This document shows positions 18,736 to 60,913 of a stretch of DNA of 64,000 nt, one piece after another (within the stretch, counting starts at the first letter, position 1; the number at the start of each line of letters is the position of its first letter). Made by a program: the position numbers and the translations under genes. Origin of the DNA: a virus. Taxonomy: Duplodnaviria; Caudoviricetes. The stretch is taken from the IMG/VR virus record IMGVR_UViG_3300046804_003398. One strand, written 5' to 3'. The notes under the pieces are model-generated. The model had not been told where the DNA came from and made no database searches. It worked only from the letters and a program-made list of their open reading frames with translations.

Positions 18736-19120
18736 TGGTGGACGCGGCGAGAATCGAACTCGCGTCTTTAAGAAGTGATCCATACCAGACTACACGCTTG
18801 TATGATTTGAATTTGATAGGAAACAGAATCTAAATCATCAAAAATCCGTTTCTTAAGATTTACAGAACGGTAGATTGGATGAGCAAATCAATCATTCCAA
18901 TTATAGTTCGATGATAACACCCAACCAACTATCGAACAGTCATTAGTCAAGTGTGCAACCTTTAATTAGGCTGCGAGTGCTGCAACTTCTCCATAAGAGA
19001 AGTCATAGCTAACCACGTTTTCTTCAGCAGTTATGTTTTGATAGACGTTTAAAGAGGCCAACTATCATCCTCTACGTGCCTAGCATGAACGCATCCTTAA
19101 ATCGAAACCTGAACGCGCCC
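18736..19120 (-). ncRNA. ssrA: tmRNA, tag (A)AEENVVSYDFSYGEVAALAA*
   Basis: 5' GGGCGCG pairs with 3' CGCGUCC-ACCA including G3.U70; T-arm GAGUUCGAUUCUC; tag ORF 19028-18966 follows AUAACU and ends ALAA-stop. Confidence 0.95.
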
Positions 19121-19333: not shown

Positions 19334-19407
19334 TGGAGCGGGTAGTGAGAATCGAACTCACTCATAGGCTTTGGAAGAGCTTCAGGCTACCGTTACATCA
19401 TACCCGC
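19334..19407 (-). tRNA. tRNA-Gly (TCC)
   Basis: Canonical cloverleaf, loop CUUCCAA, CCA. Confidence 0.9.
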
Positions 19408-19420
19408 ACTTTAATAAATA

Positions 19421-19648
19421 TTATTCGGTCAACACAAGAACTTCATATTCATAATTGTGATTTTCCTTAAACATATCACAATACTTCTTTGCTGACTTCT
19501 CGGTCAAAAAAACCTTATGAATTGATCGTTCACTGTCACCATTACGGACAACATATACCGTAATTGGCAAGATCTTTTCTTCCTTGATAATTTCACTTGC
19601 AACCAAAATGTTGCCAATCAAAATCAACGATATCAATAGTTTCTTCAT
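19421..19648 (-). CDS. Hypothetical protein with signal peptide-like N-terminus
   Basis: MKKLLISLILIG... Confidence 0.6.
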   Translation of the reverse strand: MKKLLISLILIGNILVASEIIKEEKILPITVYVVRNGDSERSIHKVFLTEKSAKKYCDMFKENHNYEYEVLVLTE

Positions 19649-19692
19649 GTCTAAAGTCTACCACAGATTGTTGTTGTGTCAACTGTTAAAAT

Positions 19693-19816
19693 TGGATGAC
19701 CGTGACTTGCGAATATACGAGGATTTCACTGGGCGTTCCAAATGTCTATCTCGTCAACTTCAGTCTCCTATACCCTCCTATGGGTATCGTGCTATAATTC
19801 TATACACCAACAATCA
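19693..19816 (-). ncRNA. tRNA-like RNA with elongated T-arm region
   Basis: 7-bp UGAUUGU/ACGGUCA stem plus U-CCA end, D-arm GUGU/GCAC, AUACCC/GGGUAU hairpin, long rod in place of the T-arm. Confidence 0.5.
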
Positions 19817-19917
19817 AATTTAAATTCAACCCTATCCTATCTGGAACAGATTCGTCCGGGTCAGACATACAGGGGTGTATCGTGTCCCTCACGCCATGGC
19901 TAAACCACCACAAGATC

Positions 19918-20327
19918 TTTGACACAGCCGTAGCCGCTGTTCTGTTTTATCCCTACATTTATCTCAGACACCTTGGCGGTTTTATGGGCATATTTAACCC
20001 ACAGATTATTAGCCGAACACAGCCGTTGGTTATTGTTTCGGACCTAGCCAAGTTCAAACCTCTACCATTGTCTGGTTGTCCGTTAAAGACAACTGCTCCA
20101 ACCTATCCCTTCAAACGTGCAGCACTACACTCGGGTTATTTAGGATTACTGCTAATATGTGGTGTTTTCGAATTAAGGTTAACCGGACTGCTCCTTGCTT
20201 CCACGGAATTGCAGTCGTTTAATCATTGTGGGCAATATGAAGTTAACTTACATTCTCCCAATCATCTGCTGTGCAGCATCGAACTTCCTCTAGGATATTA
20301 TCCCAGCGTAGGATCGCTTGTGTCAAA
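19918..20327 (-). ncRNA. rnpB: RNase P RNA
   Basis: P1 UUUGACACA/UGUGUCAAA; P2 UCCUAC/GUAGGG; P3 hairpin; CR-I GAGGAAGUUCG; L15-like AAUGGUAG; CR-IV AGAUAAAUG; CR-V AAACAGAACAGCGGCUA; P4 AGUUCG/CGGCU with bulged U. Confidence 0.85.
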
Positions 20328-20330
20328 AAA

Positions 20331-20405
20331 TGGCAGGGGATACCGGTTACGCTCCGATTCTCTCAGATTCAAAGTCTGATTTGCTACTATTACAATCAAT
20401 CCCCA
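20331..20405 (-). tRNA. tRNA-Gln (TTG), non-canonical elbow
   Basis: Loop CUUUGAA; D-loop AAUAGUA; T-loop AGCGUAA. Confidence 0.85.
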
Positions 20406-20414
20406 GTTATAAAA

Positions 20415-20490
20415 TGGTCGGGATGGAGAATTTTGCAATCTCAACCTCCTGTCTCCAAAACAGGCCGTCTACTTTTGACATTACATCCCG
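20415..20490 (-). tRNA. tRNA-Pro (TGG), non-canonical elbow
   Basis: Loop UUUGGAG; D-loop AAAAGUA; T-loop UGCAAAA. Confidence 0.8.
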
Positions 20491-20497
20491 ATAAAAT

Positions 20498-20571
20498 TGG
20501 CAGGGGATAAGGGAATCGAACCCCTACAAGAAGATTCAAAGTCTTCCGCACTACCATTATGCAAATCCCCA
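20498..20571 (-). tRNA. tRNA-Gln (TTG)
   Basis: Canonical GG/UUC elbow, loop CUUUGAA. Confidence 0.9.
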
Positions 20572-20581
20572 GTTCTGAAAT

Positions 20582-20655
20582 TGGAGCGGGTGGAGGGAAT
20601 CGAACCCTCTCATCGTCCTTGGCAAGGATGTAGGCTACCGTTACATCACACCCGC
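20582..20655 (-). tRNA. tRNA-Gly (GCC)
   Basis: Canonical cloverleaf, CCA. Confidence 0.9.
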
Positions 20656-20664
20656 GTTATAAAT

Positions 20665-20740
<76 letters not shown>

Positions 20741-20746
20741 GTAAAG

Positions 20747-20840
20747 TGGCGGAAGGTGAGGGTGCTGCCCCCTCAGTGGTTTTTTAGGCCACGGCAGTTT
20801 AGCAAACTGCTACGACTAACTAACTATTCGTCTACCTTCC
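20747..20840 (-). tRNA. tRNA-Ser (GCT), non-canonical elbow
   Basis: Long variable arm; T-loop GGCAGCA; D-loop contains AAUAG. Confidence 0.85.
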
Positions 20841-20847
20841 ATAAAAA

Positions 20848-20935
20848 TGGCGGAAGCAGTAGGAATCGAACCTACGAGGGTTTTTAGGCCCCAGGCGTTT
20901 TCAAGACGCTTTCCTCGACCTGCCGGACTACTTCC
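20848..20935 (-). tRNA. tRNA-Ser (TGA)
   Basis: Long variable arm, canonical T-loop. Confidence 0.9.
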
Positions 20936-20942
20936 GTAAAAT

Positions 20943-21020
20943 TGGTGGACCAGGTGAGAATCGAACTCACATCAGATTGATTGCAAATCAGTCTCGCTTA
21001 GCCTTAGAACATGCCAGCCC
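20943..21020 (-). tRNA. tRNA-Ala (TGC)
   Basis: G3.U70, loop UUUGCAA. Confidence 0.85.
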
Positions 21021-21027
21021 ATAAAAT

Positions 21028-21112
21028 TGGTAGGTGTAGTAGGATTCGAACCTACAAAGGATATGATATTTTAAGTATCACGGTTGTTCCAGTTTCCCTC
21101 ATCCATACACCC
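21028..21112 (-). tRNA. tRNA-Leu (TAA)
   Basis: Loop CUUAAAA, canonical T-arm. Confidence 0.88.
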
Positions 21113-21119
21113 GTTAAAT

Positions 21120-21197
21120 TGGTAGCTACGACTGGATTCGAACCAGCACTATTCTATTTTTGAGATAGACGACTCCTTCCAGTTGGTCTACGTAGCC
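21120..21197 (-). tRNA. tRNA-Leu (CAA), short variable loop
   Basis: Loop CUCAAAA. Confidence 0.85.
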
Positions 21198-21207
21198 ATT
21201 ATAAATT

Positions 21208-21291
21208 TGGTCGGCATGATAGGACTTGCACCTACACCCCTTTCGGGACGAGCTTCTAAGACTCGCATGGCTTCTATTACATCACATGCCG
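21208..21291 (-). tRNA. tRNA-Leu (TAG), non-canonical elbow
   Basis: Loop CUUAGAA; T-loop UGCAAGU; D-loop AAUAGAA. Confidence 0.85.
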
Positions 21292-21294
21292 AAG

Positions 21295-21372
21295 TGGTGG
21301 TGATAACAGGATTCGAACCTGCACTATTTACTATCTCAAAGTAACGACTCCTTCCAGTTGGTCTATATCACC
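21295..21372 (-). tRNA. tRNA-Leu (GAG), short variable loop
   Basis: Loop UUGAGAU. Confidence 0.85.
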
Positions 21373-21378
21373 GTAAAA

Positions 21379-21456
21379 TGGTCGGAATGACAGGATTTGA
21401 ACCTGCAACTTCTTGCTCCCAAAGCAAGCGCTCTAGCCAAGTTGAGCTACATTCCG
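21379..21456 (-). tRNA. tRNA-Pro (TGG)
   Basis: Canonical, loop UUUGGGA. Confidence 0.9.
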
Positions 21457-21463
21457 ATAAAAG

Positions 21464-21538
21464 TGGTGGACGATGAGGGATTTGAACCCCCGACATTCTC
21501 CGTGTAAAGGAGGTGCTCTTCCACTGAGCTAATCGTCC
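21464..21538 (-). tRNA. tRNA-Val (TAC)
   Basis: Canonical, loop UUUACAC. Confidence 0.9.
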
Positions 21539-26469: not shown

Positions 26470-27335
26470 TGGCGTGAGATTACCGCCTTCACTGTTGACC
26501 TTCGGTTAGATTATACCCATCTTGCGGACAGGCTTCCTAACTTATCCACGATCACGACTTGCGCCTATAATCGTATCCAACATGACTGCCTTTTTAGGGT
26601 TGTGGCTTATCAACCTTAACCTAGAACTATTCAACCTTCATCCATCCGTCTGCCTTCGACAGCAGTTAAGTCTTGCGGACACCGTTCAGACTCCGATTAA
26701 CAACTAGTGTCTTGCGGACATTTCGTTGTCTGTGTTATCTTTCGACCACAGAGTTAAGTCACTTTCATCCTAGACAAACAACGACTTTGCGTTTTTGTAT
26801 ATATGAACTGGATTTGAACCAGCAACACATAGCTTTACATAGCTATTACTCTACCATTGAGTTATCATGCACCTAACAATGACGTGCGTTGTTTGTCGTT
26901 TCATATCCTTTTGGGATACAATATGCGACACGCCATTTGTGTTTCTCTTGCGGATACTTCACCGATTTTCAAGATCAAGTCCCTTGGTTGGCCTTTGGTC
27001 CTCTTTCTATCAATCTACATACGAGCATTTGATTGCGGTCTCACACCCGTATCTTTGGCTTAAATCTTACTCTTGGATGTTTTGCTGTGAGCAGTGGTCG
27101 GCGGCACCGTTACCGAACATATGCCAGTGTTACCCACACATGTTCTTTTTCTCACCATCGTCGGATATACTTCCACCTTTTGGATGAAAGTCACAGACTT
27201 TGCCATTTGTTTGAGTGTCCTAGTTGCCCAGGCGAGGGTCCGTTAGGGGACTACCTCTTTCATGAGTATTACTACTCACTATCTTATATGGAGGTCAAAC
27301 CCCCCAAAATCTTTTTACTTCAAAGAACTTACTGT
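26470..27335 (-). ncRNA. Large structured ncRNA candidate (GOLLD-like) with embedded tRNA-like element; ends approximate
   Basis: Promoter TTGACA-16-TAAGAT at 27369-27342; no coherent ORF; helices 26761-26770/27182-27191 and 26773-26783/26887-26897; four UCCGCAAG motifs; tRNA-like module 26801-26870. Confidence 0.65.
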
Positions 27336-42691: not shown

Positions 42692-43957
42692 TTACACCTT
42701 GGCAAGCTTACGGCCTGGAGTTCCATTATATTCATGTGACTCAATAACCGTAGCACTCTTGGAGGCAATCTTTTTCTCCAGCTTACTCAAAAGAACCTTG
42801 TAACGCTTACGGGTCTTGAGATAATCATGTCCCCTCAACATCGACTTGTATGTAAACGAACGTTCGCCAATCTTGTGAAGAGTCTTACGATCATTACACA
42901 GTGTATCAACCAAAGTGCAATATGTCTCAACAAACTCATTCACATCCTTGATGGTCTTGATATGAGAATAATCAGTTGCCTTCAAAATATACAAGTCCAA
43001 CAAAGCATTAACAGAAGGACGATTGCCAAACAACGAAGCATTAGGCTCAACCCACTTGTCAAAAAACTCGGACACAGACAACTCAAACTTCTGATGATCA
43101 AGATCCATCGTAGATCCAGACTGATAAGCATCATCAAACAAAACAGAATTCCACCTCTGAGTCATACCATTCTGTCGAATAAAAGCACAATGCGTAAACC
43201 AAGCATCAACCTCACGACGATTATACTTGATCTCACTCTTCTTAAACGCCTTGAGAAGCACATTAGAAGCAGTTTCCTCATTGTTGTAATACTTCACACC
43301 CATCTCACGACACACTCGGGAAATATCACTAATAATAGCATTACGCTTTTCAGCCTGATTCAACGGAGTGCCACTGTTGACAGCCAAGAACAAATCACTC
43401 AACTGTGCCCGAGTTGACTTGGTAAACAATTCAACACAAATCTCCCTACTCAGAATAAATCGCTTGACATCCTCATCCAATTCATCCCAAGTCTTATCAG
43501 CACCAATCACAACCTCATTGTAATCATTGTTGACAGCCTCACCAGGAGTAGATCCATTCACACGACGAATATAATAACGACCCGGAGACAAAGTAAGCTG
43601 ATTACTAAAAAATGCCTTGATCGTGGTAAGACGATTGTTACCGTCAACATTCAAATACTTGACATTCTTCTTGGCCCAACCAGAGTAATACTCAATGTCA
43701 AGCTTAAACTTGCTGCTCTTGGTATTCGTCAAACACGCATCAACATCCGCAAACAAAAACTTACTGGGAGCAAGACCATGAAACAAATTGTTCAAATACT
43801 CTCGCATCTGATTGGTCTTCCACCGAGCAGGACTTTGAAAGTGCCGGTCAATCTCAACAGTGTTCATCAACTTGGAAACTGTCTCCAATGACCACATATA
43901 ATTCTGAGACTCAGTGTTGCTAATGTAGTTGTTATCAACAATAACGGTATTCTTCAT
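42692..43957 (-). CDS. DUF262 (GmrS/ParB-like) domain protein
   Basis: FQSPARW, VDGNNRLTTI, LFLAVNSGTPLNQAEKRNA. Confidence 0.85.
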   Translation of the reverse strand: MKNTVIVDNNYISNTESQNYMWSLETVSKLMNTVEIDRHFQSPARWKTNQMREYLNNLFHGLAPSKFLFADVDACLTNTKSSKFKLDIEYYSGWAKKNVKYLNVDGNNRLTTIKAFFSNQLTLSPGRYYIRRVNGSTPGEAVNNDYNEVVIGADKTWDELDEDVKRFILSREICVELFTKSTRAQLSDLFLAVNSGTPLNQAEKRNAIISDISRVCREMGVKYYNNEETASNVLLKAFKKSEIKYNRREVDAWFTHCAFIRQNGMTQRWNSVLFDDAYQSGSTMDLDHQKFELSVSEFFDKWVEPNASLFGNRPSVNALLDLYILKATDYSHIKTIKDVNEFVETYCTLVDTLCNDRKTLHKIGERSFTYKSMLRGHDYLKTRKRYKVLLSKLEKKIASKSATVIESHEYNGTPGRKLAKV

Positions 43958-44597: not shown

Positions 44598-45617
44598 TTA
44601 TTCTTTGCTTCCAAGAAGATAAGTGTTGCTAATAGCCTTGAAACTAAACTCACGCTCAAGTCCACGAACAACAACACCCTCACGATCAACTTCCATGTTC
44701 AACACACTCTTGCCTTCAGCATACTTCAACATGTAGTCAACAATATTGGTTTCATTCGGAATCACAAATCCATACTTCTCAAGCACGGGAACCATTTGCA
44801 AATCCAAACCAAACAACACCCACTCAAGTTCATCGAAGAACATACGACGACCCTTATCAATGTCATAACCAGTAAAGAAAAACAACTTGTGGTCAGTCAA
44901 TCCATACAAATTACCATTGATACCAGCACCAATCAGTTCTCCCTGCAAAGCAATGTTCTTGCCAAGCTTAGTCATCTTGTCCTTCAACTCAAGCATCTTG
45001 GCCATACGCCACAACGAATTGTCATCGGTTTCAGACAACTCCCAGTTACGTCCACAAACACCAAATACACCATTGTTGAAGTAACAAGTGAAACTGGTTC
45101 CATCCAACTTTTCAGTTACATAAGCACGTTCACCAGCAGGATTAAATCCAACTTCACTCTCAAAGTTCTGAATACGAATTTCGTCAGTCTTTGGAATAAA
45201 ACTAGGAAAGGTTCCCTTGATCTTGCCAGCCAACTGAGCAGGAATAGGAGGTTCATACTTGACAACATCAAGCGCCTCGGTCAAATCATCACCCTCCTTT
45301 GGATTACTAATACCCTCTGGAATCGGAGTCAACAAACCTTGACTAATTTGTCCACGGAGCTTAATGGTCTTGAGACGAAATCCCTCACTGGAACCCATGC
45401 GCTTGTAACTGCTCTTACGCAAAAATTCAAATTGAGGACGAATAGGCAAAAAGCTGTCAATTTCAAAGTAAACAGCCAAATCACCCACATTGAATTCGTT
45501 CTTCTTTACCACAACCTTCCAACCACGCACAGTAGCAACAACAATAGCGTCAGCTCCAGCAATGGGTTGAATATCAGCAATTTTAACAACACTAGCCAAC
45601 TTACGTTCAGTAGTCAT
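44598..45617 (-). CDS. ATP-dependent RNA ligase, DRB0094/Rnl5 family
   Basis: N-terminal OB-like RKLASVVKIADIQPIAGADAI; motif I TEKLDGTS; LQGELIG; REGVVVR; SFKAISNTYL. Confidence 0.92.
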   Translation of the reverse strand: MTTERKLASVVKIADIQPIAGADAIVVATVRGWKVVVKKNEFNVGDLAVYFEIDSFLPIRPQFEFLRKSSYKRMGSSEGFRLKTIKLRGQISQGLLTPIPEGISNPKEGDDLTEALDVVKYEPPIPAQLAGKIKGTFPSFIPKTDEIRIQNFESEVGFNPAGERAYVTEKLDGTSFTCYFNNGVFGVCGRNWELSETDDNSLWRMAKMLELKDKMTKLGKNIALQGELIGAGINGNLYGLTDHKLFFFTGYDIDKGRRMFFDELEWVLFGLDLQMVPVLEKYGFVIPNETNIVDYMLKYAEGKSVLNMEVDREGVVVRGLEREFSFKAISNTYLLGSKE

Positions 45618-60838: not shown

Positions 60839-60913
60839 TGGTGCTCCCATTAGGATTCGAACCTAAACAAAGGCTTTAGAAGAACCTGGTGCTATCCATT
60901 ACACTATGAGAGC
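60839..60913 (-). tRNA. tRNA-Arg (TCT), isolated
   Basis: Canonical cloverleaf, loop CUUCUAA, CCA. Confidence 0.9.

Follow-up and report, generated by a model that had tools for sequence, protein, structure and literature searches.

Genomic context of the RNA gene

The window, which comprises the whole 64,000-nucleotide stretch of DNA that was analysed (IMG/VR record IMGVR_UViG_3300046804_003398), was clearly of phage origin, as it encodes a gp25-like baseplate protein, a tail fibre with an S74 chaperone domain, PhoH and GP88; judging by relatives assessed with CheckV, the genome would be ~300 kb long. Inside the tRNA gene array of this large freshwater phage, an RNase P-like RNA of ~411-413 nt was found at window 20329-19917 on the minus strand (Table 1). 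The RNA was numbered with position 1 at window 20327, such that a window coordinate equals 20328 minus the RNA position. ARAGORN identified 30 tRNAs, and two low-scoring tRNAs with odd elbows brought the number to 32, all of which encode CCA and are separated by A/U-rich spacers of 7-10 nt. It was noted that a U precedes the tRNA 5' end in most cases. The two odd tRNA-like genes, which encode CCA and were missed by ARAGORN, scored 34 and 38 bits and possess D-loops without GG and unusual T-loops; the second of them was encountered at 96-100% identity in nine related contigs.

Several other genes were observed in the surrounding region. A tmRNA (119.8 bits; tag AEENVVSYDFSYGEVAALAA; CCA encoded) appeared at stable-RNA depth in RNA runs, and a tmRNA lies in the same neighbourhood in L012, L013, L015, L016 and L026. 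The GOLLD RNA (206 bits) contains an internal tRNA-like element. Directly 3' of the RNase P-like RNA, a non-coding stretch without any Rfam match was conserved at 84-95% identity in L001, L011 and L010, being relocated in L010; it was co-assembled with the RNA in some RNA runs, where one contig end (19719) abuts an Illumina adapter, and it may represent either the tail of a precursor or an independent small RNA. A small ORF (75 aa) with a hydrophobic N-terminus lies between the RNA cluster and a tRNA-Gly gene, and a plus-strand ORF overlaps the RNA. Farther away, the window encodes an Rnl-type RNA ligase of the tRNA-repair type (PHA02142 OB fold and RNA_ligase domains), adjoining a protein with a weak, sub-threshold match to GmrSD_N.

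Table 1. Coordinates of the phage RNA, its structural elements and neighbouring genes in the window
Feature	Coordinates	Strand	Basis or remark
Whole RNase P-like RNA	19917..20329	-	covariance-model matches R1 and R2; head-to-tail junction contigs, 20329 to 19919 (X29) or 19917 (X30)
P1 5' strand UUUUUGACACA	20319..20329	-	starts 2 nt after the CCA of the upstream tRNA (20333-20331)
P1 3' strand UGUGUCAAAG	19917..19926	-	P1 pairing; junction contigs
P2 5' strand UCCUAC	20308..20313	-	pairs with 19956-19951
P3 hairpin	20290..20306	-	compensatory changes even inside the window's own clade
CR-I / J3-4 and P4 5' strand, GAGGAAGUUCG-AUG	20277..20290	-	gapless against E. coli rnpB
P5 5' strand CUGC	20273..20276	-	pairs with 20152-20149
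P6 pseudoknot 5' strand CAGCA (J5/7)	20267..20271	-	pairs with UGCUG in the P17 loop, 20124-20120
Remodelled S-domain	20153..20266	-	not alignable to the E. coli S-domain
Short P7-position stem	20261-20258 / 20162-20158	-	S-domain
Further S-domain elements	hairpin 20254-20234	-	also GAGA, two more hairpins and an A-rich strand before CCAC
J5/15 and P15-P16-P17 arm	20097..20148	-	pairing and covariation
J5/15 AA	20147-20146	-	invariant, 47/47 members
P15	20145-20143 / 20099-20097	-	
P16	20136-20133 / 20109-20105	-	
P17	20130-20128 / 20119-20117	-	
GGU in J16/15	20101..20103	-	E. coli G292-G293-U294 position, R1 alignment
Extra conserved hairpin, P15 to P18 position, GUUGUC-UUUAACG-GACAAC	20075..20093	-	compensatory changes among close relatives
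Branched expansion at P18 position on CAGACA/UGUCUG stem	19966..20073	-	holds the GGU mis-assigned in the original prediction
CR-IV / J18-2 AGAUAAAUG (E. coli AGAUGAAUG)	19956..19964	-	rnpB comparison and R1
J2/4 with ACAGAA (CR-V)	19940..19950	-	directly 5' of the P4 3' strand
P4 3' strand CAGCGGCU	19932..19939	-	pairs with the P4 5' strand
tRNA genes	19334-21538, 29896-34999, 60839-60913	-	
Odd tRNA-like genes	20334-20404, 20418-20490	-	
tmRNA	18736-19120	-	
Small ORF	19421-19648	-	
Non-coding stretch 3' of the RNA	~19700-19917	-	
Overlapping ORF, 165 aa	19882-20379	+	
GOLLD RNA	26471-26938	-	tRNA-like element 26797-26872
Rnl-type RNA ligase	44598-45617	-	
GmrSD_N-like neighbour	42692-43957	-	

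Conserved elements of the catalytic domain

The elements of the catalytic core agreed well with the original prediction and, judged from sequence, occur far beyond what chance would be expected to produce. The prediction had recognized P1 as UUUGACACA/UGUGUCAAA (20327-20319 / 19926-19918), P2 as UCCUAC/GUAGGG, the P3 hairpin, CR-I as GAGGAAGUUCG (20290-20280), CR-IV as AGAUAAAUG, CR-V as AAACAGAACAGCGGCUA (19947-19931) and a P4 with a bulged U; all of these were recovered at the predicted positions on the minus strand, and P1-P5 were found to covary over 26-47 relatives. The class-A framework helices P1, P2, P3 and P5 were present, as was the CR-IV motif of J18/2 (AGAUNAAUG), and the class-A hallmarks P6, P16 and P17 were detected in the window RNA and across the family. 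P1 closes nearly all family members with unrelated sequences, and five of the six P2 pairs displayed changes on both sides in 8-14 sequences.

The bulged U of P4 is position 20282, in the register of E. coli U69. In the window copy P4 contains one A.G mismatch (A 20279 opposite G 19937), leaving its variable triplet paired at two of three positions. The same site is a C-G pair in L001 and an A-U pair in both L015 and the expressed variant, and a C>A change at 19937 (read as U in the RNA) was recorded in the expressed river variant and in part of the DNA run. The mismatch looks like an intermediate of a compensatory switch, and it could weaken the window copy.

One element had been misplaced. 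The original prediction had located the CCA-binding GGU at 20066-20064, within an L15-like segment (AAUGGUAG); because this segment sits in a clade-specific insert, the P18-position expansion, it is not the conserved CCA-binding motif. The conserved GGU was instead found in J16/15, directly 5' of the P15 3' strand as in E. coli, and it is the putative partner of the tRNA 3' CCA. This GGU and the two J5/15 adenines were invariant in all 47 members, and no search pattern contained either.

Relationship to bacterial RNase P RNA

Rfam 15 detected the GOLLD RNA, the tmRNA and ~30 tRNAs in the window. None of the Rfam RNase P families matched at gathering thresholds or at E <= 10 (1.1 kb searched), with the window RNA failing to reach the gathering threshold of RF00010 (100 bits). 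No match was obtained to class B (RF00011), and P6, P16 and P17 were present instead of P5.1, P10.1 and P15.1. Twelve mid-sized relatives likewise had no RNase P match at Rfam gathering thresholds, and Rfam missed 12 of the 13 mid-sized and large members tested. L086, a family member with the family-specific P4 signature in a complete 168-kb phage genome, scored 191 bits on RF00010 (RNaseP_bact_a; cut-off 100).

Two half-models were constructed, R1 from the 3' halves of 26 phage RNAs only and R2 from the 5' half plus the S-domain. When derived from the sequences of other phages, R1 matched the window at 59.8 bits (E 1e-12) and R2 at 53.3 bits (E 4e-10). In the 4.64-Mb E. coli chromosome, the top match of R1 was rnpB, aligned end to end and in register at 21.5 bits; the E-value was weak genome-wide (0.26) and 0.0037 within 65,201 bases comprising the rnpB locus (L157) and the window. 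By simple proportion, a random top match would land on the ~120-nt rnpB target and strand with a probability of ~1e-5. Homology was therefore established through two independent links, L086 on RF00010 and R1 on rnpB, and for this reason the Rfam miss is not decisive. The original prediction had proposed a covariance-model search as a check, and although no significant match was literally returned, these two links identify that outcome as a false negative.

Using the E. coli rnpB sequence from the annotated RefSeq record, we obtained gapless alignments of the 5' block (GAGGAAAGUCCGGG versus GAGGAAGUUCGNNN) and the 3' block (ACAGAA-CCCGGCUU-A versus ACAGAA-NNNCGGCU-A), which yield an 8-bp P4 and place the bulged U of the family exactly at U69. 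Relative to E. coli, three P4 pairs were changed compensatorily (A67-U359 to G-C, G68-C358 to U.G and C71-G356 to G-C), and these changes are lineage-specific. Elsewhere, E. coli AGAUGAAUG corresponds to AGAUAAAUG, and E. coli C290-GGGU-A295 (C-GGGU-AGG) corresponds to the phage C-GGGU-UGAGG immediately 5' of the P15 3' strand. The E. coli order of GGAGCAA, P15, purine-rich strand and P16 corresponds to the GCAA-CUCAA-ACAG arrangement of the family.

Distribution of the RNA family

IMG/VR was scanned with exact patterns for two conserved blocks, and a later scan was carried out without the requirement for the 5' block. In the loci, GAGGAAGUUCG precedes ACAGAA-NNN-CGGCU by 136-345 nt, with both blocks on one strand, and ~60 loci from the scan without the 5' block nonetheless carry that block exactly. 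After the removal of duplicates, at least 47 distinct RNAs of 195-414 nt were found in viral contigs. Six of the 11 loci from the first 17-mer scan (L004-L009) were dropped as chance or coding matches. L001, L010 and L011 are 81-89% identical to the window RNA and miss ~100 nt of it, and L015 is collinear with it. Densely packed tRNA genes surround nearly all members, a tmRNA or GOLLD is a frequent neighbour, and several carriers are phage genomes of 166-306 kb that are complete and have terminal repeats.

Among prokaryotes (one genome each of 185,579 species, searched with a 22-base two-block pattern), only four copies were encountered, all on MAG contigs. As at least 47 copies were recovered from IMG/VR, some of them in genomes with terminal repeats, compared to four MAG contigs in 185,579 species, the RNA family is viral. 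The region had no blastn match among 50,697 GenBank phages, and the nearest virus record (G001) contains no copy of the RNA.

It was noted that L160, a 216-kb scaffold binned in a Solirubrobacterales MAG, carries a compact phage-type RNA. The same MAG contains a canonical rnpB (253 bits) and rnpA on other contigs (C21 and C10 of G015), which makes the compact copy an extra one, and this copy is probably located on a mis-binned phage or a prophage. In L154, L062, L057, L123, L146, L055 and L082, a AGTTCTTTGA motif recurs 10-20 nt upstream of P1; the members with this motif do not directly follow a tRNA, and the motif may be a promoter or processing signal.

Covariation across the family

We assessed structural conservation across the family from covariation. 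RNAalifold, applied to a structure-blind MAFFT alignment of 26 compact members, predicted P2, P3, P5 and the three-helix arm, with compensatory double changes in 20 of 22 pairs. The triplet following GUUCG pairs with the NNN of ACAGAA-NNN-CGGCU at all three positions in 43 of the 47 members, through more than 12 triplet types, and at two of three in the other four; this variable triplet and the fixed pairs together form an 8-bp P4 with a bulged U. P4 was 98.6% paired, and its covariation of 0.383 (0.090 when shuffled) was reached by none of 500 shuffles, with slid controls at or below 0.06.

The P6 pairing emerged unsought from an all-against-all column scan, which connected the segment 3' of P5 to the innermost-hairpin loop of the arm. 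Its topology is that of the P6 pseudoknot, and its covariation was 0.689 compared to 0.216 after shuffling (0/500), exceeding every slid control as well. For P15-P17, a model-based alignment of the 47 distinct members gave 92.1% pairing against 58.6% when shuffled and a covariation of 0.907 against 0.232 (0/500; slid controls 0.05-0.16). The P7-position stem also covaried (0.312 versus 0.129 shuffled; 0/500). The minimum free energy fold of the whole RNA was unremarkable (z -1.5).

Remodelled specificity domain and P18-position expansion

The S-domain of bacterial RNase P RNA recognizes the tRNA elbow. No P7-P12 S-domain with CR-II and CR-III was found in the phage RNA, and R2, which includes the 5' half and the S-domain, failed to retrieve E. 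coli rnpB; the S-domain is accordingly not homologisable with the elbow-recognising domain of bacteria. The original prediction likewise could not match the region to the CR-II/III consensus. In most members, the region enclosed by P5 consists of a short P7-position stem around GAG, one hairpin and an A-rich 3' strand, and across the family only the stem and one hairpin are common. The module is enlarged in the clade of the window by unrelated hairpins that differ between close relatives. L086, unlike most members, possesses P8, P9 and P10-P12.

A further proposal, that the divergent S-domain is tuned to tRNAs with A18/G55 elbows, was unsupported, since the domain is reduced or remodelled family-wide and mostly beside ordinary tRNAs. 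One of the two odd tRNAs is found alongside clade members that differ in RNA length (274-414 nt) and in their S-domain inserts, and ordinary tRNAs surround over 30 further members in which the S-domain is minimal. Because remodelling is shared by members beside ordinary tRNAs, it is a family trait and provides no evidence of tuning to odd tRNAs.

In the R1 alignment, E. coli P18 is inserted where the window RNA carries its P18-position expansion. This expansion was observed in the window, in L015 and, by spacing, in L029 and L033, and was absent from L001, L010, L011, L013, L047, L012 and all compact members. An element at this position was lacking in 15 compact members, comprised 21-70 nt in most and reached 129 nt only in the window and L015. 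A GNRA-capped P18 hairpin was present in L001, L013, L047 and L012; in the window and L015 it was missing, and a 96-nt branched insert was found instead. On the former stem base, the expansion forms a branched fold (z -2.4 versus shuffles).

Expression and a head-to-tail junction

Parts of the RNA gene were found in 14 RNA runs. In three river metatranscriptomes, contigs of neighbouring ORFs had depths of ~1-7, compared to 51-61 for the RNA in two of the runs and pieces of 13.6 to more than 100 in the third. In the same three runs, the tmRNA was at 60-225, and GOLLD, which exceeded every other RNA of the region by a wide margin, at ~1000-1800. The best DNA run showed a flat depth of 23-26. Two further river runs recorded RNA depths of 77 and 95 versus ~1-5 over ORFs, and a 2023 freshwater study contributed short, low-depth pieces of the RNA. 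As the assembled contigs stem from a variant with ~97% identity, they document expression in a close relative, and their depths are crude and semi-quantitative. Contigs of the expressed variant run through 19968-20071, which is the insert at the P18 position.

In runs X29 and X30, the contig was circularly permuted, extending from 20178 to 20329 and then continuing at 19919 (unit of 411 nt) or 19917 (413 nt), with no letters shared at the joint. This arrangement indicates reads that join the P1 3' end to the P1 5' end, and the RNA ends read in the original prediction fall within 1-2 nt of the ends given by this junction. In the other RNA runs, linear contigs ran into the flanks; a few junction reads suffice to close a unitig. 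The junction sequence was absent from IMG/VR. Tandem duplication of the DNA was considered as its source and was unsupported, as the 28 metagenome-contig matches were all unrelated hairpins. The junction may represent a true circular RNA, or mature ends may have been joined by ligation or template switching while the library was made; under either reading, it maps the RNA termini to P1.

Circular forms of RNase P RNA are on record for Sulfolobus (PMC3326292) and, from a preprint, for E. coli M1 RNA. As in those reports, head-to-tail junction reads at or near the RNA ends were encountered in the phage relative, whereas the phage junction is known solely from assembled metatranscriptome contigs of an uncultured relative. 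The junction contigs suggest a link between circularisation of RNase P RNA and phage RNA ligases.

Comparison with known RNase P RNAs

RNase P RNA is considered a hallmark of cellular organisms. In full-text literature searches, we found no paper on a virus-encoded RNase P RNA, and in megaphages Rfam has found only tRNAs and a tmRNA (PMC8172020). The phage RNA resembles class A (RF00010; E. coli M1 RNA, rnpB) in P1-P5, the register of the bulged U in P4, P6, P15-P16-P17, the J16/15 GGU, the J5/15 AA, CR-I, CR-IV, CR-V and its CCA-encoding substrates. It differs from class A in being phage-encoded, in that the window copy is undetected by RF00010, in an unalignable S-domain with no recognisable P8, P9, P13, P14 or CR-II/III, in the extra hairpin after P15 and in a ~108-nt branched domain that replaces P18.

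The archaeal type T RNase P RNA of Thermoproteaceae (RF02357) combines a full catalytic domain with a minimal specificity domain. The compact relatives (195-220 nt) exhibit the same combination; however, the phage RNAs belong to the bacterial class-A lineage, with P6, P16, P17 and GGU and no Rfam type-T match, and the window copy is ~411 nt long. P12 is also missing in type T (PMC8172020). The diverged RNase P RNAs of CPR bacteria mostly lose P13, P14, P16 and P17, and often the CCA-binding GGU (Lui et al. 2021, PMC8172020). Like the phage RNAs, these CPR forms derive from class A, go undetected at default Rfam thresholds and have to be refolded by hand, but the pattern is the opposite one, as the phage family keeps P15-P17, P6 and GGU with a shrunken or remodelled S-domain. 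Assignment to the CPR type was consequently rejected, since those forms lose P16/P17 and GGU.

Proposed function and alternative explanations

The data directly support homology, conservation of structure, a viral distribution, accumulation of the RNA and ends located at P1. Window 20329-19917 genuinely encodes a phage homolog of class-A RNase P RNA that is both conserved and expressed; its catalytic domain is canonical, and its specificity domain is not. The central claim of the original prediction, a phage-encoded RNase P RNA inside the tRNA array, has thus held: the catalytic domain looks intact, the tRNA genes of the array encode CCA, and the RNA was found to accumulate. We consider it likely that this RNA is a phage version of the class-A ribozyme that is transcribed with the array, trimmed at P1 and acts by a bacterial-type mechanism, which we infer for catalysis, for the GGU-CCA pairing and for the use of host RnpA. 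Under this model, the RNA would be transcribed together with the tRNA array, trimmed to its P1 ends and folded into the canonical catalytic domain (P1-P5, the P4 and P6 pseudoknots, P15-P17, J18/2 and J2/4). Each phage pre-tRNA would be bound through its encoded 3' CCA, by pairing with the J16/15 GGU, and the short A/U-rich spacer at the tRNA 5' end would be cut away by the P4 core, which would probably act at the phage tmRNA as well. No RnpA (PF00825) was detected by a Pfam scan of the ~60 window ORFs, in agreement with the original observation that no rnpA was visible, nor in 13 viral records carrying the RNA, five of which are 98-100% complete; control genomes and the bacterial MAG did match. 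Host RnpA would most likely serve as the cofactor, since the phage encodes none.

The missing RnpA could also be taken to mean that the RNA is a true homolog without a role in tRNA processing, serving, for example, as a decoy that titrates host RnpA or pre-tRNAs and so biases the RNA processing of the host, or as a ribozyme retargeted to substrates other than tRNA, such as GOLLD or tmRNA precursors. The remodelled S-domain that cannot be aligned to the bacterial one, the P4 mismatch in the window copy and the GOLLD and tmRNA neighbours in the window phage and its relatives would suit such a role. However, selection has kept the elements of catalysis and CCA-acceptor binding (bulged U, ACAGAA, P4, GGU and J5/15 AA), a protein sponge needs no P6, P15-P17 or GGU, and the gene lies among CCA-encoding tRNA genes, which makes a non-processing role unlikely. 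The P4 mismatch also bears on whether the window copy is a decaying pseudogene, disabled by the A.G opposition and by loss of the P18 tetraloop. Its nearest relatives have C-G or A-U at this site, the variant in the RNA runs carries a paired U, and a 96-nt insert takes the place of the GNRA hairpin. Yet the window copy is undamaged in every other conserved position and helix, L015 and the expressed variant also have the insert, which folds better than shuffles (z -2.4), and a lone internal mismatch is what a switch from C-G to A-U would be expected to pass through, with two of three pairs recorded in 4/47 members. Decay of the window copy therefore appears distinctly improbable.

Hardly tenable is the reading that the locus holds no functional RNA gene but chance motifs or plus-strand coding sequence (ORF 19882-20379, 165 aa). 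The missing Rfam match, an MFE z of only -1.5 and the overlapping ORF would be compatible with it, but they are opposed by model E-values of 1e-12 and 4e-10, by pervasive covariation that includes two pseudoknots, by indels among relatives that break the reading frame and by an RNA depth well above the ORF level.

Assuming the class-A processing ribozyme, the family constitutes a natural deletion series in which the catalytic domain is under strong selection, while the specificity domain and P18 have been shrunk, swapped or expanded freely; the series shows the minimal needs of a bacterial-type RNase P ribozyme. A further implication is that tRNA 5' maturation can limit large phages with at least 30 tRNA genes, or can be contested during infection. 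Rfam-based annotation misses most such genes, and a dedicated model would change the annotation of large-phage genomes. More speculatively, large phages might maintain their own RNase P lineage, evolved from a full class-A form down to miniatures of ~195 nt, whose RNAs may mature into closed circles at P1, possibly through a phage RNA ligase, and in exonuclease-resistant form process the tRNA array without the host RNA subunit; we regard this extended scenario as doubtful, although conceivable. To our knowledge, the shortest bacterial RNase P RNA is the 276-nt molecule of Mycoplasma fermentans, and the ~195-nt phage miniatures are smaller.
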